This document shows positions 5,777 through 64,000 of a stretch of 64,000 bases of DNA, piece after piece. Within the stretch, counting starts at the first letter, position 1; every line of letters starts with the position of its first letter. Both the position numbers and the translations under genes were made by a program. The DNA is taken from positions 6,563-70,562 of the IMG/VR virus record IMGVR_UViG_3300002485_000004; one strand, written 5' to 3'. A model generated the notes under the pieces. It was given only the letters and a program-made list of their open reading frames with translations. It was not told the origin of the DNA and did not search any database. Source of the DNA: a virus. Lineage: Duplodnaviria; Caudoviricetes.

Positions 5777-6589
5777 ATGCCACCAGTTCTACGCCTTGGG
5801 ACCACCAACGAGTGGGTCACCGTATGGACCACCTTCCTGTACTCTGCGGGTTTGTCCGACAGCATCTACAGCGGCTACACCACCTCCGCGAAGGAGAATA
5901 CCAAATCGTTCCAACGAAAGTACGGACTGATCGACGACGGGGACGTTGGAGAGCAAAGCTGGGGGATGGCAATGGCCCTCGGCCTTCGAATCGATGCGGA
6001 CGCGCACGTAACGGAGTTTTCTCAAGTTCGACCTCCTGCTGGTCTCACGTACATCCGAAGTGATGACAGAGAGAAGTTCTTCGGAGTTCTTCGCTACACG
6101 GACGCGCCTACGAAGGGCAACATCGACGGCATCAAGATTACGAATGGGTGGGTCGCCAGCAATATCGCCACCGTATTCGTGCCACAGCTGAAGACATTAG
6201 CTGGGCTCGCCGTTGGATGCGGGTTCCCAACGAGCGGCAAGGTGCAGTGGCATGCCAACTACGTTGAAGATCTCCTCGGATTCTTCAGGGACGTAGAGCT
6301 GTACAACCTGCTAGGCCACATCATGACCTGGGGCGGGTCTTGGGCGCCGCGCAAGGTTCGCGGTGGAACGGCCCTCAGCAACCACGCGTACGCCACCGCC
6401 TTCGACATCAACGTCGCCTGGAACGGCCTGGGCCGTAGACCTGCAGGCAGGGGAGAGAAAGGGTCAGTGGTAGAGCTGGTGGAGCTCGCTGCAAAGAACC
6501 GATTCTGGTGGGGCGGGTGGGGGTGGCCGCCCAACAACCGCTTGGATGGAATGCACTTCGAGATCGGGAAGCACGACATCCTGCGATGA
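5777..6589 (+). CDS. Peptidoglycan-binding domain + M15-family peptidase
   Basis: TKSFQRKYGLIDDGDVG (PG-binding); SNHAYATAFDIN and DGMHFE are M15 zinc-binding motifs. Confidence 0.8.
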   Translation: MPPVLRLGTTNEWVTVWTTFLYSAGLSDSIYSGYTTSAKENTKSFQRKYGLIDDGDVGEQSWGMAMALGLRIDADAHVTEFSQVRPPAGLTYIRSDDREKFFGVLRYTDAPTKGNIDGIKITNGWVASNIATVFVPQLKTLAGLAVGCGFPTSGKVQWHANYVEDLLGFFRDVELYNLLGHIMTWGGSWAPRKVRGGTALSNHAYATAFDINVAWNGLGRRPAGRGEKGSVVELVELAAKNRFWWGGWGWPPNNRLDGMHFEIGKHDILR

Positions 6590-8282: not shown

Positions 8283-8370
8283 ATCCCGGAGACAGCCGGG
8301 CCTGGTTGGTGCTGTGCGCTCCATCCGCGCCCGATCCAAACGGGTCGTCCCGGAGACAGCCGGGCCTGGT
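8283..8370 (-). CRISPR. Mini-array A: 2 repeats, one 40-nt spacer
   Basis: Repeats at 8283-8306 and 8347-8370 read ACCAGGCCCGGCTGTCTCCGGGA(T/C) on the minus strand, matching the array after the TnpB-like gene. Confidence 0.7.
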
Positions 8371-8478
8371 GGTCGTAACTCAGCAACAAAAGACTGAGGC
8401 AGCCCACGGGCCCGGTCGTGGGTTCCGCAAGCTGCCTCGGGCACTACGGGAGGTGTCACCCTCCCGCAGCGCATGGAC

Positions 8479-9027
8479 CTAGTATAGCAGGTCCTCACTC
8501 AACGTAGGCGGCGTAGACGGGTCGCCGTGCTGATTCCAGCGGGCCTTGGCGTAGCGGACGCACCGCATCATCCATCCCGGAAGTTCCGGGATCTTGTGCT
8601 TGATTAGGGCATCGGCTGCCGCGACCATGAGGGCGGCCTGCTTCTGGTACGCCAGATTCAGGTCTGGTTCCTTGTGGCCGACCACCTCCAGCTCCCTGAG
8701 CTTGCCCTTGAGCACCTTGAGCTCCTTCTTCTGCTCTTCCAAGTACTCCGCCAGCTTGACCTTCGTGACAATCGCGGCCTCCCTGGTAGCCAGCGACTTC
8801 TGCATCCCCTCGAGCATCGGGAACTCCCCGAAGCGCTTGTGGAGCTCTCCGAAGTTCAGCAACGACACGTACAGCGCAAGGCTGCTGTCCTCGATCTTCA
8901 GGAGCCGGTTCAGCGCCTTGGCAGCCACGTGCATGTTCTTGTCCTTCAGCGCTTTGAGGCAGAACTCCTGCGGAGCCTCGGCCAGTGCCGCGAGCTTCTG
9001 ATCTCTGGTCATCTCTTTCGTTGCCAC
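8479..9027 (-). CDS. Hypothetical helical protein
   Basis: 182-aa ORF with phage-like codon usage. Confidence 0.65.
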   Translation of the reverse strand: MATKEMTRDQKLAALAEAPQEFCLKALKDKNMHVAAKALNRLLKIEDSSLALYVSLLNFGELHKRFGEFPMLEGMQKSLATREAAIVTKVKLAEYLEEQKKELKVLKGKLRELEVVGHKEPDLNLAYQKQAALMVAAADALIKHKIPELPGWMMRCVRYAKARWNQHGDPSTPPTLSEDLLY

Positions 9028-9115
9028 TGTCTTCCTACTTTCTACGCCCGAAGGCGCATTGGTGAGCGGGGACCCACAGAAGCTCTACCACGACACTCCC
9101 ATGGGTATCCCCAGG

Positions 9116-9189
9116 TGGACTCAGCCGGATTCGGACCGGCAACAGCTCGCTTATGAGGCGAGGGCTCTAACCGATTGAGCTATGAGTCC
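9116..9189 (-). tRNA. tRNA with CAT anticodon (elongator Met or Ile2)
   Basis: Acceptor GGACTCA/TGAGTCC; anticodon arm CTCGC-CT-CAT-AA-GCGAG; T-loop reads GTCCGAATC. Confidence 0.9.
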
Positions 9190-9190
9190 G

Positions 9191-9263
9191 AGCTGGCGAG
9201 AGGAATCGAACCCCCAACCACCGATTTACAAAACCGGTGCTCTACCTATTGAGCTACACCAGC
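9191..9263 (-). tRNA. trnT: tRNA-Thr(TGT)
   Basis: GCTGGTG/CGCCAGC acceptor; CCGGT-TT-TGT-AA-ATCGG; GGTTCGATTC T-loop. Confidence 0.95.
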
Positions 9264-9545
9264 AAAAAGGTGGCACCTGATAGCATCTACGGGGCAAGCC
9301 CCTCAGCCACTAGGTGTTCCCGCTCGGGCCCATACGCCGCTTCATCGAGCTAACGCCCTCGACGGCGTGCAGGTTGTTCCCTCACAGCCCGGCACCGCCA
9401 CACCAGGGCTCTTCGAGCAGACCGTTTTTGCCAGCGTCACCTGGCTTCTTCATAGGCTCTCCAGCTCCTACTAGCCGTTGACACCCCACGAGGGTTTCAG
9501 ATGCATGGTTTTGGCACACCTGAATCTCTATGAGCACGGCGCGGG

Positions 9546-9618
9546 TTGAACGGACAGGGGTTGAACCTGCGACATGCGCCTTGTAAGGGCACCGCTCTAC
9601 CGACTGAGCTACCGTTCA
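9546..9618 (-). tRNA. trnV: tRNA-Val(TAC)
   Basis: TGAACGG/CCGTTCA acceptor; GTGCC-CT-TAC-AA-GGCGC anticodon arm. Confidence 0.93.
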
Positions 9619-9790
9619 AAGCGATGGGTGCTGCAAGTACTTCTACGGTTTCCCTCCGCCTTTGCAGCTTCTACCAAGAGACCCCGAGAACTGTGGGCGT
9701 GCAAGGGGGCGACTTCGTAACGGAACCCATCTCCCGTAAGTGAATAGTCCCAGCAGGTTTAATGATTCTGGTTCTTTCTCTATCCACTCG

Positions 9791-9864
9791 TCCGGATGGC
9801 TGGATTTGAACCAGCAACAACCGACTCCCAAAGCCGGTCCTCTACCAAGTTGAGGTACACCCGG
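9791..9864 (-). tRNA. trnP: tRNA-Pro(TGG)
   Basis: CCGGGTG/CATCCGG acceptor; CCGGC-TT-TGG-GA-GTCGG; GGTTCAAATCC T-arm. Confidence 0.93.
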
Positions 9865-9971
9865 GTGCTGGGGCAGTTTCTCGACTTGCCCCAGGTCGCC
9901 TCGCATGACCGATGCTCCGACGGTGCGGTGCAGCGCGAGTCACCGAGATTTATTCCCCTTGTCGGGGTTGC

Positions 9972-10271
9972 CTAGCCAGTCTTGTTGTTCCAGGCCGCTG
10001 TTTTCATCTCGCAGCGGCAGCCACGTTCAGTGTTGACGCACGACCAGGCGCCCCGAGCCTGCGCGTCTAGACTAGCCGATGAGGAGCCCAAGCGCTGAGC
10101 TCCAGGGGGCGACCGGGCAAGATGCTCCGGTTGCTCTCCACCACTTCCCCGGTTACCCGGGAGAAGACTCTCGTCCATCTTCCTTCGGTGCTGCCTGAGC
10201 ACCACTAGGAAGAGTAGCAGGGCCGCCGTCAACACAACCGCGAGGGCAAATGCCGTTTCCATCCAGTTCAT
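9972..10271 (-). CDS. Membrane-anchored hypothetical protein
   Basis: N-terminal hydrophobic helix FALAVVLTAALLLFLVVL followed by RQHRRK. Confidence 0.5.
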   Translation of the reverse strand: MNWMETAFALAVVLTAALLLFLVVLRQHRRKMDESLLPGNRGSGGEQPEHLARSPPGAQRLGSSSASLDAQARGAWSCVNTERGCRCEMKTAAWNNKTG

Positions 10272-10352
10272 CTCCGCAGCCTCCGCAGCAGCACGGGCAC
10301 TGCCTCGTGTCGATGTCGTGAAAGTCCTCGCACAGCACGCAGTATACGGCTC

Positions 10353-10619
10353 TCATCCCACCCCTTCGTGCCGCTGTCCCATGGTCTTGACCACCATGTC
10401 GATCCATTTCTGAACCGTGAACCCCATTGGGAGAGCCGTCACCACTTCGTCGTCGATGCAGATGTCCAGCTCCTCTTCCAAGAAGAGCGTGATGTACATG
10501 AGATCGAGCTCGTCCAGCTTGTAGCTGTTGAACGTAACGTCGTTCTTGACCTCGTTCTTCGGGACGCCGCAGAACTCCTGCAGTGCTTGATGAACCAGAG
10601 CCTCTACCTTCTTCTCCAT
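10353..10619 (-). CDS. Acyl-carrier-protein-like protein (DEL in place of DSL)
   Basis: MEKKVEALVHQALQEF..GVPKNEVKNDVTFNSYKLDELDLMYITLFLEEELDICIDDE...TVQKWIDMV aligns by eye to ACP; start taken at ATG 10619. Confidence 0.75.
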   Translation of the reverse strand: MEKKVEALVHQALQEFCGVPKNEVKNDVTFNSYKLDELDLMYITLFLEEELDICIDDEVVTALPMGFTVQKWIDMVVKTMGQRHEGVG

Positions 10620-10620
10620 C

Positions 10621-11055
10621 CTATTTCCTCTCCCAACTAGAACGGCGTCCGGGGCGCACAACATCCTCTGGAGCCGACCCGTGGGCCACACGGTACCGAA
10701 GAGTGCTGTGCGGAACTCCCGTAATCTCACTCCATTCCGCCAACGTCTTCGTCTCACCTCCGACCGTCAAGAACACGTTCTTTGAACTATTCCTGTTCTG
10801 CGTCCTGCGGTCCGTCCAGCGTATGTTACCAGGCTCGTACCCTCTATTGTTGTCAATACGGTCGAGCGTAAGTCCAGCGGCAGGCTTAGGCCCAACATGC
10901 TGAAAGAAGCGAGCGAAGCCGCCACTACCCAGCCAATCGCTATGCACCTTAACACCACGGCCACCGTAGTCCTTGTACTGCCTGAACTTCCTATTGGTGC
11001 AGCGCTGCACCATGTTCTGCCACGCCATATACTCAGATGTTCTATCGGAGGACAT
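10621..11055 (-). CDS. HNH homing endonuclease-like protein
   Basis: EYMAWQNMVQRC...YGGRGVKV...TLDRIDNNRGYEPGNIRWT..TQNRN, followed by a C-terminal HTH. Confidence 0.85.
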   Translation of the reverse strand: MSSDRTSEYMAWQNMVQRCTNRKFRQYKDYGGRGVKVHSDWLGSGGFARFFQHVGPKPAAGLTLDRIDNNRGYEPGNIRWTDRRTQNRNSSKNVFLTVGGETKTLAEWSEITGVPHSTLRYRVAHGSAPEDVVRPGRRSSWERK

Positions 11056-11067
11056 CTACCTCCTTAG

Positions 11068-11425
11068 AGGACCCGTCGGGAGTTGAACCCGAATCCGCAA
11101 AGTTCTGTTCGCTTCCTCTTCACATGCTTGGCTGCTTAACCCTGCAGCGGGTTGTAGCGGCTTGGTAAGTGACCCGCCTCGTAGGACCGCCGAAGTATCT
11201 CGACCGGAGCCCGGCATCCCAGCTCGCTCTCTCGGTCCAGCCCTTGTTGGGTTTACGCCTCGGGGGGTACTAGGACTCCTACCCCGTCAACGGCCGGGTG
11301 GCTTACGCCACGTCGGCAAGATAGTTGTCGTTGGCAACTAGCTGATGCCCACTTTTATTAAGGCTGTGTGAGCCCAGCCTGCATGCAGAAGTGTTCTTTC
11401 CTCCACGTCGAAACCGGTCGGGCCC
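11068..11425 (-). ncRNA. ssrA: tmRNA
   Basis: 5' GGGCCCGACCGGTTTCGAC; 3' GGGTTCAACTCCCGACGGGTCC with G3:U70 pair; tag frame TAGTT-GCC AAC GAC AAC TAT CTT GCC GAC GTG GCG TAA (11303-11335). Confidence 0.92.
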
Positions 11426-18392: not shown

Positions 18393-18652
18393 GCTGTTGT
18401 CCAGAAAGGAACAATCGAACGAACCGAGCTTCCCTGTCAGACGCCCCGAGGGGCTACCTGGCGCGGCGCTCGCCTGCTGACGCAGGCTCCTTCCGCATAG
18501 AGTCCGGTTCGGCGCAGCGGCGCGCCTACAATGGGGACCCGTCCAGGACTCTTTCAGCTATGGCTTGGGCTGCGCACCCCTTCCCACGTTCGCTGTGGGT
18601 TTCGCCACGCCCGGCACGAGACTCGTTCGACTGCTCCTTTCTGGACAACAAC
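18393..18652 (-). ncRNA. Candidate ~260-nt structured non-coding RNA closed by a 30-bp stem
   Basis: Arms 18393-18422 and 18623-18652 pair over 30 nt; all three non-Watson-Crick positions are G-U on the minus strand. Multiple internal helices; fills the whole intergenic gap. Confidence 0.75.
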
Positions 18653-30374: not shown

Positions 30375-31028
30375 ATGAACCACTTCGCAGGCAAAGTATC
30401 CCCGTGTGGCAAAAACAGGTGGCAGATGCACATTGACCCAGCACTGGGCCTCCCAATGAAGAAGCTGACGGTGCTGCGGTCGGAAGCCGCCACGGCCAAG
30501 GCAGCAGAGAGCCAGCTGCAGCGGCGCGTCATGAGGATGCTCAAGGGCAAGGAGAAGAAGGATCGAGCGGCAGCGGCCAAGGCACAGCAGCTCAACCTTC
30601 CGTTCGACAAGAAGCGCGCGCGGTACCGAGGGGTGAGTCTGCAGCTGCCTGTGTTGAAGTACAAGCTTACAAAGCTACCAGATGAGGGGGGATACAAGAG
30701 CCGGGCGTCTGCGCAAGAAGCCATTCGCAACTTCGTGCGGGCGAAAATCAGCCCGCTTGGCAGAGCCATGACTCTGAAGGCCCTGGAGGCCATCATGGAC
30801 AACAACCCCGCTCTTCGAGCTGAGCACCCCAAGGGCACTGGGCTGGGGCGCAAGGAACAGGTGCTTCAGAGCGAGTCGACGAAGCCCGCTACGCCAAAGT
30901 ACGAGGCGAAGCCTCAGATGGATAAGGATACCTTGTACGCGCTCTGCATCGAGTTGGTTACCATGCTCGTGCGGCACTTGAATATAGAGTTTTCTGATCT
31001 CAAGAAGATGCCTTCTAGCGGCGCGTAA
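30375..31028 (+). CDS. Basic hypothetical protein, possibly DNA-binding
   Basis: 217-aa K/R-rich ORF with AAGGAG SD. Confidence 0.65.
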   Translation: MNHFAGKVSPCGKNRWQMHIDPALGLPMKKLTVLRSEAATAKAAESQLQRRVMRMLKGKEKKDRAAAAKAQQLNLPFDKKRARYRGVSLQLPVLKYKLTKLPDEGGYKSRASAQEAIRNFVRAKISPLGRAMTLKALEAIMDNNPALRAEHPKGTGLGRKEQVLQSESTKPATPKYEAKPQMDKDTLYALCIELVTMLVRHLNIEFSDLKKMPSSGA

Positions 31029-31038
31029 AAGGGATAAC

Positions 31039-32503
31039 GTGGCATTCCTACCACTGCCCTTCGTCAACCGGGTGAAGGAGGTGTTCTCCTTCCACCTCAA
31101 CCAAGATCTCAACAAGTCGTTCGTCCTCATCATTCCAACAGTCGGGGCTGGGATGAGCAAGCGCTACGACGTGATCCGAGTCTTCTACGCTGGCAACGCC
31201 AGGTGCATCGGTCGAGAGCTGCCGATTAGGATGGCGAGGGAAGTTGCTCTTCGAGACCCCAGACAAGACGGGAAGCCACTGAAGGAGAGCACATGAACGT
31301 CGAGGTAGACTTCGAGAACAAGACCACGAAGGTGATCGTTCCGTGGCTGGACCTTGAGTACCACGTCACCATCAACGATGAGGGAATCATCATAGACGCT
31401 GTGAAGTATGGGGAGGTGGAGACCAGTAACACCTACGGGTATGGAGACTTGTCCTCATACTCCCCAGAGTCCGGTGCAAAACCACCGTGTGAGTGCGATG
31501 AGGGCCAAGGATGCTGCTGGGACGGGAGGCACGAGTAATGGACGTCTATTGCGCGAACTGTGGAGAGCCATGGGACCTGTCCCATCTACGGAACGACGAG
31601 GTGCACGAGACCGCCGCCGGCACGGAGATGATCTACGACAAGATCGACATGGAGAAGTGGGACGAAGAGATGTGCAAGTACGGAGGGCTGTCACGAGAGG
31701 CGGCTCTTCGAGCCTGTCCCAAACCCGAGCCTCAGTACAAAGGAGAGCCATGGACAGGCCAGCTCACCGACTTCTGGCGTAGGGAGTTCAAGGCGCTGGG
31801 GTGGGAGTTCGGGGGGAACCTCGCCATCGTCCTCCGCTGCAACTGCTGCGAGGCCAATGGACCGCGGGAGGATGCGGAAGACCGAAGAGCCGACTACGAA
31901 ACCATCGACTCCCTACTGGGAGATGACTTGGATGGGGCAGCCGTTGAAGTCAACGACCTGGAAAGGACACGTGCGCATGTCATTTGAGACGTCGGAAGAG
32001 TACGTCGCGTACTTGCGGGGAAAGGTGGAGGGCATGGAGGCTCAGCTTCATCTACTCCGCGTCAAGAACACAGTGCTGGCTGTACTGTGTGCCCTCCTAG
32101 CCGCTATAAGCCTTGCGGATGCTTTGATGGAGCTGTACCGATGAGCGACTTTTCTGTATGGGACGCCGTCAACTGCACAGAGGAAGAAGCGGAGTATATA
32201 TTCGAGGACGACGCCAAGTCTGCGGCGATTGCGTACGCTGAGCAGGACGTCGACGGCGGCATTGACGGGATCTACACGAATGAGAAGGGGCTTCCCCTGA
32301 ACGACCTGAAGAAGGAAGGGCAGCCCATCTTCGTACGCGACTCGAACGACGTACTAACCCGATGGCGCGTGGGAGTCGTCGAGTTCGAGCCGGTGTACGC
32401 CGCTTCCCAAGAGGAGCTGGAGCCAGACGACGGGCGTTGCCCGCACGGTGCGTTCTTCACAGGGGCGGGAGCCTGCCCTCAATGTGGAAGGGGTGCGGAT
32501 TAA
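31039..32503 (+). other. Small hypothetical ORFs upstream of the TnpB-like gene in the same operon
   Basis: 31039-31296, 31293-31538, 31538-31987, ~31977-32144, 32141-32503 abut each other. Confidence 0.6.
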
Positions 32504-32512
32504 GGAGGCAGT

Positions 32513-33859
32513 ATGCCAAGACATATCAAGCATCACGACGGAAGAGAGATTCGTGGGCTGCGCGTGAAGTGCTACCCAACGCCCGAACAAGCGCTAGCGT
32601 TGCTCGACTTGCAGAGAAGACTTCGTCGGCTGTGGAACTGGTTAGTTGCGAGGTCTTCAGACACTAGAGCGGCTCGCGAAGCCTGGGCCTCTCGCAATGG
32701 AGCAGGAACTCGACCTGCGAGACCTGAGAACGACGCTGGAGAGCAGGCATGGGCCACCTACAAGACGGTGATGAGCGAGTGGCGAGCGCGTGTTCGATCT
32801 GTGCTGGAACTGCACAAAAAGGATCCCGGGCTCGCGTATCGAAACGTGCGTGACTACATCGCTCAGTTCGGCGTTGATCACGACTACCAGCTCTACCCGC
32901 ACTTGTTCGACGATGATCAGCCCCCGCTTGCACACCCGCAGCAGGCGCTCTTCAAAGATTACGAGGCGGCCATGCGGGCAACCGCTCGGGGCCAGCGACC
33001 GCCCAGGAGGCGCAAGCGCGACGAGGACATGCCGCTGCGGGTGGGGTCTGGCACACACTTTCGTCAGGTCGCAGATGGCGGTCGCCGAGTGATTGGGCAT
33101 CATCCTAAAGGACCGCAGATGAGCGGGAGAATCAACTGTCAGGTGAGCCTACCTGGCATCGGCTGGATCAACGCCACCATTTCTTCAGAGCAGCCACTGG
33201 AGGCTCAAGAGTACTGGGTGGAGGGGGTGGCCCTACGACGTGAAGCCGACGGGTGGTACGCGGCAATACGCCAGCACGTCGTGCCGACTGTGGCGCCGAA
33301 GGGCGTTGGTGCGTGCGGCATCGACGTCGGACTCGTCTATTTATTCGCGGCGGTAGGCGACGATGGACAGCAGATTGTGGCTACGAATCCACGTCTTGGT
33401 TCACGCCGTGGGCACCTGCGAACACCAGGCGGGTACGTCGAGCTCATTGCTGAACGACAAGCGGCAAAACTTCCAACGACGATCCTTCAATGTCGGTCGG
33501 CGCGCAACGTGCGGCAGGTGGTACGAGAGCAACTGTTTCCATTCACAGATCGCTACGAGTTCATTGCAGTCGAGAACCTACCGGCCAACATCGGGTTCCT
33601 CGAGACGCCCCACTTGTCGTTCATGCGCACTGTTCGATCAATGTTGGTCCAGCGCTACGGGTGCGAGAGGGTCATCGACGTCGATCCAACGAACACCTCT
33701 CGCATATGTTCCAAGTGCGGGCATCTGTGCAATAGATCTTGGTCTGACCTGCTAGGGCGCGTGGGTCTATGCCCAGCTTGCGGCCACTCAGAGATGTCAG
33801 ATCTGAACGCCGCTCGCAATGTGCTCCACAGACTATCGAAACTATTGGCCGCCGAATGA
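32513..33859 (+). CDS. tnpB: TnpB/Cas12f-like RNA-guided RuvC nuclease (candidate miniature type V effector)
   Basis: N-terminal RVKCYPTPEQ...LRRLWNW; RuvC-I CGIDVG; RuvC-II IAVENL; zinc ribbon CSKC...CPAC; RuvC-III SDLNAARNV. GGAGG SD only 9 nt after the upstream stop. Confidence 0.9.
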   Translation: MPRHIKHHDGREIRGLRVKCYPTPEQALALLDLQRRLRRLWNWLVARSSDTRAAREAWASRNGAGTRPARPENDAGEQAWATYKTVMSEWRARVRSVLELHKKDPGLAYRNVRDYIAQFGVDHDYQLYPHLFDDDQPPLAHPQQALFKDYEAAMRATARGQRPPRRRKRDEDMPLRVGSGTHFRQVADGGRRVIGHHPKGPQMSGRINCQVSLPGIGWINATISSEQPLEAQEYWVEGVALRREADGWYAAIRQHVVPTVAPKGVGACGIDVGLVYLFAAVGDDGQQIVATNPRLGSRRGHLRTPGGYVELIAERQAAKLPTTILQCRSARNVRQVVREQLFPFTDRYEFIAVENLPANIGFLETPHLSFMRTVRSMLVQRYGCERVIDVDPTNTSRICSKCGHLCNRSWSDLLGRVGLCPACGHSEMSDLNAARNVLHRLSKLLAAE

Positions 33860-33876
33860 CGACCCTCGCCGCACCA

Positions 33877-34238
33877 ACCAGACCCGGCTGTCTCCGGGAC
33901 GAGAAGCGGACCAGGCGAGGACCGACCTTGAGCACCCTCACCGCGCACACTAGGCTCGGCTAACTCCGGGACAGGTCGACCTCGCCCTTGGCGATGTCCT
34001 TACAAGATGCACCAGGCCAGGCTGACTCCTGGACTACCCGCTCGCTGAGGCAGACATTCGCACCACACCTACCAGGCCCGGCTGACTCCGGGACGCTCTT
34101 GGGATGAGCGAACGCGCTCCCATCGCCTCTCCTCGCCGCACCAACCAGGCCCGGCTGACTCCGGGACGCAGGTCGAGGCACGCGCTGCACTCCCGGTGAA
34201 CGCGCTCCAAACGCACCGGTCCAGGCTTCATACATGGC
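33877..34238 (+). CRISPR. Array B: five 24-nt repeats plus one degenerate terminal repeat
   Basis: Repeats at 33877-33900, 33949-33972, 34011-34034, 34071-34094, 34144-34167 and a degenerate copy at ~34215-34238. Unique spacers of 48, 38, 36, 49 and 47 nt. Confidence 0.85.
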
Positions 34239-34485
34239 GCACGTCACACCGGCACACCCGGAAAACAGTTGCACCAATGATGAGAGCGACAACATCAGCC
34301 CCGTACAAGCTCAGCTACAGCCCCAAAGGGGAGATCGGGGTGGAGAACTTTCCAGACCCAATCCCACCATCCACATCGTCTGAATGGCGCCTGGTGGGGT
34401 TTCAAGTAGTACAAACCACGACGCTAAGCGGACTATTTGTGTGGGCGTGGGAGAGCCCACACAAGGGAACGAAGAAGGAATAGTG

Positions 34486-35335
34486 ATGGACGACGACAAG
34501 AAGGAAGTTGTGTCCGTGGAGGACAACAAGGTACTAGTAGACATAACAGAGGCGGTGAGGCAGCTGAAGGGCGGGCTGGAGCACTACATCACAAGCCAAG
34601 CGAGAGCAGCTCTCGTCAAGGCCATCGAGAAGATTGTGCTGGACATGGCCAAGAACGAGCTTCGTTACATCGTCAATGTAACGCTGCACGAGATCTTGGA
34701 CGAGATGAGGTTCAAGTCGCCTGCGGAGGCGCCGCCCAGAACGGGCAAGGTGCTTCCCGTACCGTCCGGGGCAAGGGTGGAGCTCGCTGCTGCGGAGTTG
34801 GAACGCAAGGAACCCGTGTACGACCTCACGCTGAAGGAGTACCTGACCGTGTGGATGCGAGGCACTAGCTTCAGCTGGGGAGAGCGCCCTCGCATCTGGG
34901 AGATGGTCGAGCGTCACCTCCAGAGCGTCACGTCGAGCATCGTGAAGGATGAGCTCAAGATGCACACAGATCAGGTGCAGAGCTACCTGCAGGAAAACAT
35001 CGTCAAGGAAGTACTCGAGGCTTTCATGCGGAGGATGTCGAAAAATGGATGACAAGAAGCTGGCGAAGGAGCTCGTCAAGAGGCTCAACGGGCTTCTCGA
35101 GAACAAGGCGGCGCACGAGCTACTTCAGAGGATGCTCAGCATTCGCTTTGACGTGACGGACGCTGTGGCGAGCCATCCGACCATACAGGTGTCCTCCAGC
35201 GACACCGTTGGGTTCTTGGGAATGCTCAACGGCGCTGTGGGCATCCGCCCCGATGGGTACGGTCACATCGCTGGTGAATACGACGACAACTGCACCCTGA
35301 TAGGCTTTACTGTAACAGGGGAGCGAAAGACATGA
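34486..35335 (+). other. Two hypothetical ORFs (34486-35052, 35045-35335)
   Basis: ORF track with refined starts. Confidence 0.6.
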
Positions 35336-35907
35336 GCCACGAGGAGCTTCGCTGGGACAAGCTACAGGAAGAAGTCCGTGAGTGGTCGGTGCGCAACTTT
35401 GGGGACAACCCAGCGCACAGGCCCATCCTGGGGATCATCGAGGAGCTCGGGGAGTTGATCAAGGCCGAGCACCACGAACGAAACACCACGGAGGCCATCG
35501 ACGCCGTTGGGGACGTCATGATCTACATGGCCGACTTCTGCGGGAAGACCAACCGTGACCTAGCGCACATCGCAGGCTGCGCCTTTAGAAGAAGAGCGCG
35601 AGGCATAAGCCTGCATATCCTGGATGCCGGTATTCCTTCCAGCAGCGTTGCATCGCTGATGGGTAAACTAGCGCACCACTGGCTGAAGTCCGAACAGGGC
35701 ATACGCACGGGGGAGGACCATGCTACCAGCATCACGTACACGCTGATCAACATAGTTGAGCTGCTCGCCTACTACTACCCCGTCGAGTCGGCGGTGGGTG
35801 AGACGTGGAAGCGCGTCAGCCAACGGGATTGGAAGAAGAACGCGGAGACAGGACAAGTCGATGTCGGAGCTGGAGAAGGCCAAGAGCCTGATACGGCTGG
35901 CACTTAG
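35332..35907 (+). CDS. MazG-like nucleoside-triphosphate pyrophosphohydrolase
   Basis: LQEEVREWSVRNFG...IEELGELIKAE...DAVGDVMIYMADFC. Confidence 0.8.
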   Translation: MSHEELRWDKLQEEVREWSVRNFGDNPAHRPILGIIEELGELIKAEHHERNTTEAIDAVGDVMIYMADFCGKTNRDLAHIAGCAFRRRARGISLHILDAGIPSSSVASLMGKLAHHWLKSEQGIRTGEDHATSITYTLINIVELLAYYYPVESAVGETWKRVSQRDWKKNAETGQVDVGAGEGQEPDTAGT

Positions 35908-36289
35908 CGAATCGTACAACGAGCATGAGGCACGGGCTGCCGCCATGGCGGCGGTCCGTCTCATAGACCAGTACAACTTGCTTGAGTCGGCGCCAGTATC
36001 GGTGCGTCAGGACCTAACAAGTGAGCTGGTGGATAACGTACTAGACACGTGCCTAGCCATGCTGGAGTTTGATCCAACATGGCTGGTGAGCGTGGCAGAC
36101 ATACTCGGCGCCGTGTTCGAAGCCTGGGAACCTTACCCAGATGCCGTAACGCGTCGTCGCGTTTACCACCGAGTTCGCTATCGCCTGGAGTGCTTCGTAA
36201 GTCGTGGACTTCTAAGGAAGAAGTACGCCAAGGGCTACGTGCTACAGAAGGGCGTCAGCGTAGGGGACTTTGGATTCAAAAACGCATAG
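35861..36289 (+). CDS. DUF2786-like protein
   Basis: ELEKAKSLIRLALSESYNEHEARAAAMAAVRLIDQYNL. Confidence 0.7.
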   Translation: MSELEKAKSLIRLALSESYNEHEARAAAMAAVRLIDQYNLLESAPVSVRQDLTSELVDNVLDTCLAMLEFDPTWLVSVADILGAVFEAWEPYPDAVTRRRVYHRVRYRLECFVSRGLLRKKYAKGYVLQKGVSVGDFGFKNA

Positions 36290-63267: not shown

Positions 63268-63441
63268 GTCTCGGAGTCAGCCGAGCCTGGTAAAGATTGA
63301 AAGATTGTGAGCTGGGCGCGGCGCGCGATCGATTCCGAAGTCTGCAGTCCCGGAGACAGCCGGGTCTGGTATGTGCTGTGAAGTGGCGAACAAGAGCGGG
63401 CCGGGGATGTGGTTCAAGTCTCGGAAACAGCCGGGCCTGGT
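63268..63441 (-). CRISPR. Mini-array C: 3 repeats, spacers of 47 and 55 nt
   Basis: Repeats at 63418-63441, 63347-63370 (identical to the repeat at 33877) and 63268-63291; starts 5 nt after the rnhB stop. Confidence 0.75.
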
Positions 63442-63446
63442 AAGTA

Positions 63447-64000
63447 TCAGCAAAACTTGTAGCTGCGGCGATGAATGGGGCACATCCCATGTAGGCGAAT
63501 GCCCTCTGCGTGCTTTGGGGTACCGTAGCCCTTGTTGCTCTCCCAGTCGTACTGAGGATAGCACTTGGCGTACTCCAGCATGTACCCGTCACGAGTGGTC
63601 TTGGCTACTACGCTAGCCGCGCTCACCGCCGGAACAATAACGTCTGCCTTCGGCACCAGCACGGGCTTGATGCTGCTCCACGACGGCAAGTTCATCTTGT
63701 TGCCGTCCATCACCACCACGTAGGTGGCTTCTGGTGGGAGCGTTCCAATCAGGTGCTCTGCCACACTTTGGTTCAAGCGGCTGAGGGACACGGTCACGCT
63801 CTCCTCATCCAAGAGAGCAGCCTCACAGCTAAGAGTAAAGACGGGGATGCCTTGCTCCCGAAGGGTTACAACGGCCTTCTCCCTGCGCAGCTCCGTGAGC
63901 TTCTTGGAGTCGCGTACTCCGTCGCAGCGCCAGCCGCAGGGGGTGATGGAACCCCCCACGACTAGCGGCCCAGCCCAGGCGCCGTACCCTACCTCATCAA
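63447..64000 (-). CDS. rnhB: Ribonuclease HII (5' end outside the window)
   Basis: DEVGYGAWAGPLVV, RDSKKL, MDGN, KAD...VSAASVVAK, NKGYGT...IHRRSY. Confidence 0.92.
   Translation of the reverse strand, partial: DEVGYGAWAGPLVVGGSITPCGWRCDGVRDSKKLTELRREKAVVTLREQGIPVFTLSCEAALLDEESVTVSLSRLNQSVAEHLIGTLPPEATYVVVMDGNKMNLPSWSSIKPVLVPKADVIVPAVSAASVVAKTTRDGYMLEYAKCYPQYDWESNKGYGTPKHAEGIRLHGMCPIHRRSYKFC

Follow-up and report, generated by a model that had tools for sequence, protein, structure and literature searches.

We analyzed a stretch of 64,000 nucleotides (nt), hereafter the window, from the IMG/VR virus record IMGVR_UViG_3300002485_000004 (Duplodnaviria; Caudoviricetes), in which a gene for a predicted TnpB-like RuvC nuclease (hereafter, the effector) is followed by an array of repeats resembling those of CRISPR systems. 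The window is part of a 70.5-kb record (G000) that is estimated to represent ~37% of the complete phage genome. The identical effector protein is also encoded on a 191-kb soil-metagenome contig, and therefore the phage genome appears to be ~190 kb in size; this contig carries the same four repeat loci as the 70.5-kb record and no further ones. A blastn search of the effector locus against GenBank phages yielded no match, and neither did an Rfam search of positions 31000-36000 at E<=1.

The effector gene (Table 1) is present in a single copy in the record and, as the preliminary description of this DNA had stated, starts 9 nt past the stop codon of the preceding open reading frame (ORF; 32087-32503) and has a Shine-Dalgarno (SD) sequence of its own, GGAGG. 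The 448-amino acid (aa) product was described as TnpB-like, with three RuvC acidic residues and a zinc ribbon, and this assignment holds: the motifs GIDVG (D271), AVENL (E354) and SDLNAA (D430), along with the four cysteines, align with the corresponding parts of a TnpB-like PDB chain (RuvC-I, RuvC-II, RuvC-III and zinc ribbon), and the catalytic D/E/D residues and the zinc ribbon are at least 90% conserved among the 29 family members in which residue conservation was counted (alignment A3). As in type V systems, a single effector combines a RuvC-like D-E-D nuclease domain with an inserted zinc ribbon/TNB. In the D271 column of the same alignment, Ser or Asn replaces the RuvC-I Asp in a few members (P0026, P0060), which may be nuclease-dead derivatives.

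The Pfam family Cas12f1-like_TNB matches the effector at 6.9e-12. Placement by hidden Markov models, which the preliminary description had proposed as a check, was run and points to the generic guided_TnpB model of NCBIfam as the best match (5.7e-22, 78.5 bits, below the cut-off of 100), with every curated TnpB and Cas12 model below its cut-off: IS200_TnpB gives 32.6 bits against a cut-off of 425, Cas12f2 30.1 against 450, C2c8 25.3 against 350 and Cas12e 12.8 against 200. The PADLOC models of Cas12f and V-U produce partial matches only, to the C-terminal part. The AlphaFold2 (AF2) model of the effector (pLDDT 86, pTM 0.75) has as its top Foldseek matches the TnpB of ISFba1 (query-normalized TM-score, TMq, 0.56), the TnpB of ISDra2, and Cas12f. 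Sequence homology to solved TnpB structures is limited to residues 181-421; the N-terminal WED/REC part is ~80 residues larger than that of ISDra2 TnpB, such that the first ~180 residues correspond to approximately the first 100 there. The helical segment previously noted as an insertion in this region is indeed apparent, with residues 24-158 being helical in the AF2 model, but it is common to the whole family and not specific to this protein.

Five copies of a 24-nt core, starting at 33878, 33950, 34012, 34072 and 34145, follow the effector gene; in the entire window, 8 core matches were found compared to 0 expected from 100 shuffles. The five copies and the degenerate last one had been recognized previously as 24-nt repeats separated by 36-49-nt spacers. 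The number of copies is confirmed, but the repeat is better counted as a 36-nt unit with shorter spacers, the first four being 36, 26, 24 and 37 nt long. Counted this way, the first unit begins 5 nt, rather than 17 nt, after the effector stop codon, and the gene and the array, which had been described as fused, are adjacent but separate. No promoter-like or terminator-like site was detected between the effector gene and the array, and no terminator-like site was found in 34239-34485. The gene-finder ORF of 111 aa on the opposite strand of the array (33960-34295) is almost certainly spurious; similar calls are made in the relatives (L264, 3722-4126).

Table 1. Features of the effector-array locus and of the satellite repeats in the window
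Feature	Positions	Strand	Description	Basis
Effector gene	32513-33859	+	448 aa; predicted TnpB/Cas12f-fold RuvC nuclease	ORF, Pfam/NCBIfam, fold model, family alignment
SD of effector gene	32504-32508	+	GGAGG	
RuvC codons	33323-33325; 33572-33574; 33800-33802	+	D271; E354; D430	
Zinc ribbon	33707-33781	+	C399..C423; CxxC..CxxC, cysteines C399/C402/C420/C423	
Main array	33865-34238	+	five 36-nt repeats and a degenerate terminal copy	repeat search, sister phage comparison
Main-array repeats	33865-33900; 33937-33972; 33999-34034; 34059-34094; 34132-34167; ~34203-34238	+	last copy degenerate	
Main-array spacers	33901-33936; 33973-33998; 34035-34058; 34095-34131; 34168-34202	+		
Non-coding stretch	34239-34485	+	between array and next gene (start 34486); ~97% conserved in sister phage	
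Satellite mini-array	8283-8382	-	repeats 8347-8382 and 8283-8318, one spacer; last repeat ends AT, abuts SD and ATG of next gene	
Satellite mini-array	63268-63453	-	repeats 63418-63453, 63347-63382, 63268-63303; compensatory stem changes	

Comparison with a sister phage (locus L009), in which the effector protein is 98% identical and the synteny around the effector gene is kept, reveals complete replacement of most of the spacers in an otherwise well-conserved region. In the same place, L009 carries five perfect 36-nt repeats, with a spacing of 71, 72, 72 and 74 nt, and a degenerate terminal copy. The 400 nt upstream of the array are 96.5% identical between the two phages and the 320 nt downstream are 96.9% identical, whereas the spacers show 42-62% identity, against a mean of 49% and a maximum of 65% for shuffled sequences. 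The spacer of the satellite mini-array at 8283-8382 also differs in the sister phage; no mosaic boundary was found at this satellite (G000 versus G001), where a single high-scoring segment pair at 92.5% spans the site. Unlike all other spacers, the terminal one of the main array, 34168-34202, is shared with the sister phage at 36/36 positions, despite only ~96.7% identity of the flanks, and may be a fixed guide under selection. Within the L009 array (6460-6567), spacers 2 and 3 are identical; each is internally palindromic, contains a GGCAG/CTGCC hairpin and is bounded on either side by CTCGAG.

The last 22-25 nt of the repeats fit a single H-type pseudoknot, namely S1a, 1 nt, S2a, S1b, a 2-4-nt loop, S2b and AC, followed by the spacer; in this window, the pattern is CAG-R-CCCGG-CTG-WCT-CCGGG-AC. 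In other loci of the family, both stems are swapped for different complementary pairs. In the alignment of the repeats that we denote type A, 87.7% of the cells are paired and five pairs show double changes; in the type B alignment, 98% are paired, with double changes in 7 of the 9 pairs. In neither case did any of 500 shuffles reach these values, and in a control with slid partners, pairing dropped to 9-49%. The AT-rich repeat of one locus (L280), which MAFFT misaligned, was left out of the stem pair counts and read by eye. Double changes also occur within the window's own arrays (33937-33972, 33999-34034 and 63268-63303), which implies that each unit is selected for the fold. Apart from an invariant A-C just before S1, the first 11-14 nt of the unit, at its 5' end, differ both among the copies of one array and from array to array, and are probably trimmed or serve as a spacer.

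The effector belongs to a small family, with 57 proteins detected at E<1e-10 in an exhaustive phmmer search of 1.84 billion representatives. Neither GenBank phages nor the matches listed for one genome per each of 185,579 prokaryote species included a full-length member. Where the context of a family member is visible, it resembles that of a phage, the neighbors including a portal gene, DNA polymerases and methyltransferases. Downstream DNA is available for 16 other loci of the family, at 27-98% protein identity, and in every one of them the cognate repeat follows the effector gene; the distance from the stop codon to the repeat is 0-10 nt in most loci and up to ~120 nt in two. At least 12 of these 16 loci show the array association that is typical of type V systems, with two or more full copies, and one has a single full copy plus a degenerate one. 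The number of copies is highest in L019 (15), L181 (12), L021 and L262 (10 each) and L018 (8), followed by L009, L180, L264 and L281 (5 each); L022 has three copies after the gene and two before it, L020 two, L177 at least two (the contig ends in a repeat), and L179 one plus the degenerate copy, whereas in L178 the contig ends inside the first repeat. In the two remaining loci, L263 (4367-4402; protein P0010) and L280 (3853-3888; protein P0038), both in phage contexts, a single pseudoknot repeat follows the gene; by analogy with omega RNA, this repeat can be read as providing a fixed single guide.

In a phylogenetic tree (a quick IQ-TREE run), the family forms a clade with a support of 100 in the Shimodaira-Hasegawa-like approximate likelihood ratio test (SH-aLRT) against TnpB outgroups. 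Type A repeats are all found in one subclade and type B repeats elsewhere, that is, the repeat type tracks the protein tree. The exact type A core is confined, within IMG/VR, to contigs that encode the effector.

In the relatives, five spacers match the phage's own DNA imperfectly, at about 82-88% identity. Two of these match the phage's own effector gene, namely spacer 1 of the L019 phage (30/36 matching positions, with TGC as the 5' flank) and spacer 2 of L262 (35/40, TTC). Spacer 7 of L262 matches a small ORF just upstream (34/44, TTC), the duplicated spacer of a second array in the L018 phage matches a site ~130 nt upstream of that array (27/33, ATC), and the terminal guide of L021 matches a site ~200 nt downstream (31/36, TTC). 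The 5' flank is thus TTC at 3 of the 5 protospacers, against a background of 0.0138 (P=2.6e-5), and NTC at 4 of the 5 (P=9e-5), so that a 5' TTC is the likely protospacer adjacent motif (PAM). The mismatches of L019 spacer 1, at positions 2, 5, 8, 11 and 17, follow the codon wobble period; the protospacer of L262 spacer 2 encodes the zinc-ribbon/RuvC-III motif, and the orthologous site in the gene of another member, L178, matches at 26/36 positions. The PAM-like TTC and the wobble-position mismatches point to homologous genes of other phages as the source of the spacers. The simplest reading of these sequences is that the spacers would originate from sites adjacent to a 5' TTC PAM in homologous genes that related phages carry, that the carrier's own allele would escape through mismatches or an altered PAM, and that the effector gene of a rival would be one favored target. 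In the array, each spacer is preceded by the end of the repeat, GAC, rather than by TTC, and hence the array itself would be spared self-targeting. When the arrays of L019 and L181 were compared with phages by blastn, nothing matched significantly.

Searches for adaptation and transposition genes in this phage covered the 70.5-kb record, that is, ~37% of the genome. Cas1, Cas2 and Cas4 were not found there, which extends to the whole record the earlier observation that none is visible in the window, and neither were Y1 TnpA and resolvase, in line with the previously noted lack of a nearby TnpA. Cas1 and Y1 TnpA were not found in five relatives either, two of which are complete genomes. The hallmarks of a mobile TnpB, namely an associated TnpA or serine recombinase, insertion sequence (IS) ends and several copies, were not found. 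No consistent anti-repeat, as expected of a tracrRNA (trans-activating CRISPR RNA), was detected in seven loci, where the best local duplexes have z-scores of -3 to -4 and lie in differing places, and in a scan of the whole 70.5-kb record the only strong complement of the repeats is their own opposite strand. The structured RNA at 18393-18652 was considered as a candidate anti-repeat and rejected, with a duplex z-score of only -2.8. Because no anti-repeat was detected and the handle is self-folding, the sequences point to a system that is probably guided by CRISPR RNA (crRNA) only, as in Cas12a, Cas12j and Cas12r.

Repeats of the same kind also occur away from the main array. In addition to the two satellite mini-arrays (Table 1), one further copy lies beyond the window, 16 nt before a 1191-aa ORF, and all satellite copies in the record are oriented with the local genes. 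In a strict pseudoknot search, which produced 0 false matches in 70 kb, the complete 49.9-kb L019 phage yielded 6 solo repeats in addition to its array of 15 units, and the 44.8-kb L018 phage yielded 5 solo repeats, a pair and a second array, with four units. The dispersed repeats are intergenic, follow the direction of the genes, and are often separated by 6-60 nt from the start that comes next. Between their genes, the complete 45-50-kb relatives G002 (L267-L269) and G005 (L270-L272) hold numerous solo repeats and secondary arrays; S1 is compensated in one solo copy (GTG/CAC), and two solo copies in G005 carry CTG/CAG. The solo repeats could provide guides made from phage sequence for use against kin, given that a single repeat suffices in Cas12r (bioRxiv 10.64898/2026.04.20.719267), or they could be processing or translation-control sites. 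Just upstream of the satellite at 8283-8382, on the same strand, lies an element of ~100 nt (8385-8500) with a TATACT -10-like box, a structured core rich in GC and, resembling an intrinsic terminator, a stem with a T-run after it; this element, which the sister phage has conserved, may be a small RNA gene.

We consider it likely that this locus represents a phage-borne type V-like CRISPR system that lacks an adaptation module and employs a TnpB-sized RuvC effector. The preliminary description had put forward a domesticated, TnpB-sized, array-guided effector directed against competing elements, and this proposal is supported by the spacer turnover in the sister phages, the presence of the repeat in 16/16 other loci, the covariation of the stems, the failure to find a transposase together with the single copy of the gene, and the TTC-flanked spacer matches in the relatives. 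How the system would work, from the transcription of the locus and the processing and sole use of crRNA to the PAM, the cleavage of DNA and the choice of biological targets, is inferred, as follows. The effector gene and the following array would be transcribed together, and the 3' end of each 36-nt repeat would fold into a small H-type pseudoknot that ends in AC and would be the handle bound by the protein. The guide would be the sequence 3' of this handle, as in TnpB omega RNA and in the crRNA of Cas12a and Cas12j, and a tracrRNA most likely would not be needed. The complex would probably recognize DNA with a 5' TTC PAM and cut it via the RuvC domain, the targets probably being related or competing phages and other mobile elements.

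Several observations weigh against the interpretation of this locus as an interference system. For the spacers of this window, neither blastn against phages and plasmids nor an ungapped scan of G000 and G001 identified a target, and exact 22-29-mers of five spacers matched, in IMG/VR, only the arrays themselves. The putative PAM is derived from five sites, all imperfect and none in this phage, and no adaptation genes were found in the record, although many V subtypes lack such genes, which are not part of the definition of V-F, V-J, V-M or V-U. The array of the window is irregular, with variable 5' halves of the repeats and two spacers of just 24-26 nt, and because of this irregularity may be eroding. 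Other described TnpB-sized effectors (TnpB, Cas12f, Cas12n and most TranC) need a long scaffold or a tracrRNA, and a distant, weak or structured tracrRNA could escape a scan that covered 37% of the genome. Finally, the solo repeats located just before genes are not accounted for by plain interference.

This last feature is the starting point of an alternative that we consider unlikely, namely that the repeats are mainly intergenic phage RNA signals involved in processing, stability or translation control, that the protein binds or processes them or, in a way comparable to crRNA-like RNAs or TldR, acts as an RNA-guided regulator and not as a nuclease of interference, and that the array is a by-product or a store of regulatory guides. 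The scattered repeats always follow the gene direction and often lie 6-60 nt before a start, one of them abutting an SD and another located 16 nt before the 1191-aa ORF; the 49.9-kb relative carries 6 solo repeats and the 44.8-kb relative carries a second array and 5 or more solo repeats. Several protospacers, all of them imperfect, lie no more than a few hundred nt away from the array of their own genome, the RuvC-I Asp is lost in a few family members, and regulatory stand-alone repeats are known (bioRxiv 10.1101/2023.03.03.530964). The catalytic triad, however, is intact here and in most members, the arrays reach 15 units with unique spacers, and neither the complete spacer turnover between sisters with ~96.7% identical flanks nor the PAM-like TTC at the protospacers and the wobble-position mismatches fits a purely regulatory function. 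A role as RNA signals and a role in interference do not exclude each other.

Two further explanations appear far less plausible. An ordinary mobile TnpB of the IS200/IS605 or IS607 type with a single omega RNA, next to which the repeats would be an unrelated feature, is already largely refuted and very improbable: the fold and size of the protein, the PHROG matches annotated as 'transposase', the omega-RNA-like start of the first repeat at the stop codon and the three family members with one repeat only are compatible with such an element, but the gene is single-copy, follows the preceding gene by 9 nt and is syntenic in the sister phage, no TnpA or resolvase was found in the record and no Y1 TnpA in two complete relatives, arrays follow the gene throughout the family, and there is no full-length member among the matches listed in cellular genomes. 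Equally hard to sustain is the possibility that the repeats are decoys that mimic host CRISPR repeats (RNA anti-CRISPRs, solitary repeat units), with the phage protein being incidental. Dispersed repeats, and specifically solo repeats and mini-arrays in phage genomes, are the usual look of RNA anti-CRISPRs; here, however, the repeat type shifts with the phylogeny of the phage protein, the repeat always begins close to the effector stop codon, the exact core is confined to effector-encoding contigs, and no cellular homolog of the effector is found among the matches listed.

The emergence of Cas12 effectors from TnpB has happened many times, and the catalog of V-U groups comprises forty (PMC10691335). 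Among known systems, the TnpB proteins of IS200/IS605 elements (ISDra2, ISFba1) are the closest to the phage-borne effector in fold and size (Foldseek E ~1e-13, TMq 0.46-0.56, profile E 4.5e-22). They share the RuvC triad with an inserted zinc ribbon, as well as an RNA element that starts at the 3' end of the gene and has its guide on the 3' side of the scaffold, and some members of the phage family likewise have a single repeat and a fixed guide. In contrast to these elements, neither TnpA nor IS ends were found in the phage family, and the gene occurs in a single copy, with synteny among phages. The homology is limited to the C-terminal half (181-421), the N-terminal part of the phage protein being ~80 aa larger, and the handle of the phage system is a 22-25-nt pseudoknot in arrays with varying spacers, whereas the TnpB scaffold exceeds 100 nt.

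The TranC systems have been described as intermediates between transposons and CRISPR, and include the phage-encoded CauTranC9, with an effector of ~414 aa, a 38-bp repeat and five repeats (bioRxiv 10.64898/2026.03.27.714800). Similarly to the family described here, they combine a TnpB-sized effector with a short array without cas1 and cas2, in one case in a Caudoviricetes genome, and they embody the notion of a lineage between a single guide and an array (bioRxiv 10.64898/2026.03.27.714800). In contrast, TranC was described with a tracrRNA split from right-end RNA (reRNA), whereas no anti-repeat was found in the phage loci, and the LaTranC structure in the PDB matches the phage effector in the RuvC half only (E 2.8e-18).

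Other miniature effectors encoded by phages are Cas12p and Cas12r (bioRxiv 10.1101/2025.01.20.633832; 10.64898/2026.04.20.719267). Cas12r, from the Thermus Lalka phages, is also a TnpB-like nuclease of phages, with a short array of degenerate repeats after it, and is described as using crRNA only, with one repeat sufficing for a guide and spacers against rival mobile elements (bioRxiv 10.64898/2026.04.20.719267). However, Cas12r is a protein of 564 aa with 29-bp repeats and an ARG PAM, from a thermophile branch of TnpB (bioRxiv 10.64898/2026.04.20.719267); Thermus phage records match our effector weakly, with 25-28% identity over about half the length, and dispersed solo repeats are not described for Cas12r. 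The phage family may itself fall within one of the published clades of TranC or V-U6 to V-U45.

Cas12f (V-F) and Cas12n are miniature, TnpB-derived and among the best fold matches, and the PADLOC models match the C-terminal part of the effector, but both depend on long tracrRNAs and are found in cellular genomes, Cas12f acts as a dimer, and the curated scores of the phage effector are far below the cut-offs. Cas12j (CasPhi) is phage-encoded, lacks an adaptation module, uses crRNA only and has 36-nt repeats with a 3' hairpin before the spacer; it differs in its size of 700-800 aa, and its similarity to the effector is marginal, covering ~50 residues of the zinc-ribbon region (E 4.5e-5 to 3e-3). 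The dispersed copies resemble the stand-alone crRNA-like regulatory repeats, which are solo repeats and mini-arrays of 1-3 spacers located away from the main array and next to genes (bioRxiv 10.1101/2023.03.03.530964), except that those are found in host cas loci and regulate cas or toxin genes, whereas the phage repeats are spread genome-wide before unrelated genes, and no target of regulation was identified for them.

Because very similar ideas have been published (TranC, CauTranC9, Cas12r and the V-U groups), the novelty lies in the variant rather than in the principle. The family matches no curated subtype model above the cut-off, and solved structures include no close relative. The distinguishing features of the family are a pseudoknot handle at TnpB size with no detectable tracrRNA, the presence of single-guide and array members in one clade, the occurrence, so far, in phage-like DNA only, kin-directed spacers and dispersed repeats. 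The origin of CRISPR-Cas12 from TnpB is an active question on which a family carried by phage-like DNA bears; given that one clade holds both single-repeat and multi-spacer members, the step from a fixed guide to an array becomes directly comparable. A 420-480-aa nuclease with a ~45-60-nt guide RNA and no tracrRNA would rank among the smallest CRISPR-type systems known. Spacers directed at the effector gene that kin phages carry point to warfare among related phages with RNA as the guide, and the placement of repeats ahead of ordinary phage genes suggests that CRISPR repeats have uses other than interference.

A more far-reaching proposal, which we advance tentatively and regard as possible rather than probable, is that the family is an independent lineage of the TnpB-to-CRISPR transition, not yet described as such and seen here only in phages, with members ranging from a single guide to up to 15 spacers, a pseudoknot handle of ~25 nt without a tracrRNA and solo repeats seeded before genes. 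If so, each solo repeat would make the phage sequence next to it a guide or a protein-bound 5' end, to be used for the exclusion of kin phages, including attack on the rival effector gene, or for the control of phage gene expression.

Elsewhere in the window, on the minus strand, positions 9114-11425 contain a cluster of tRNA genes (Met, Thr, Val and Pro) together with a phage tmRNA that encodes the tag ANDNYLADVA.

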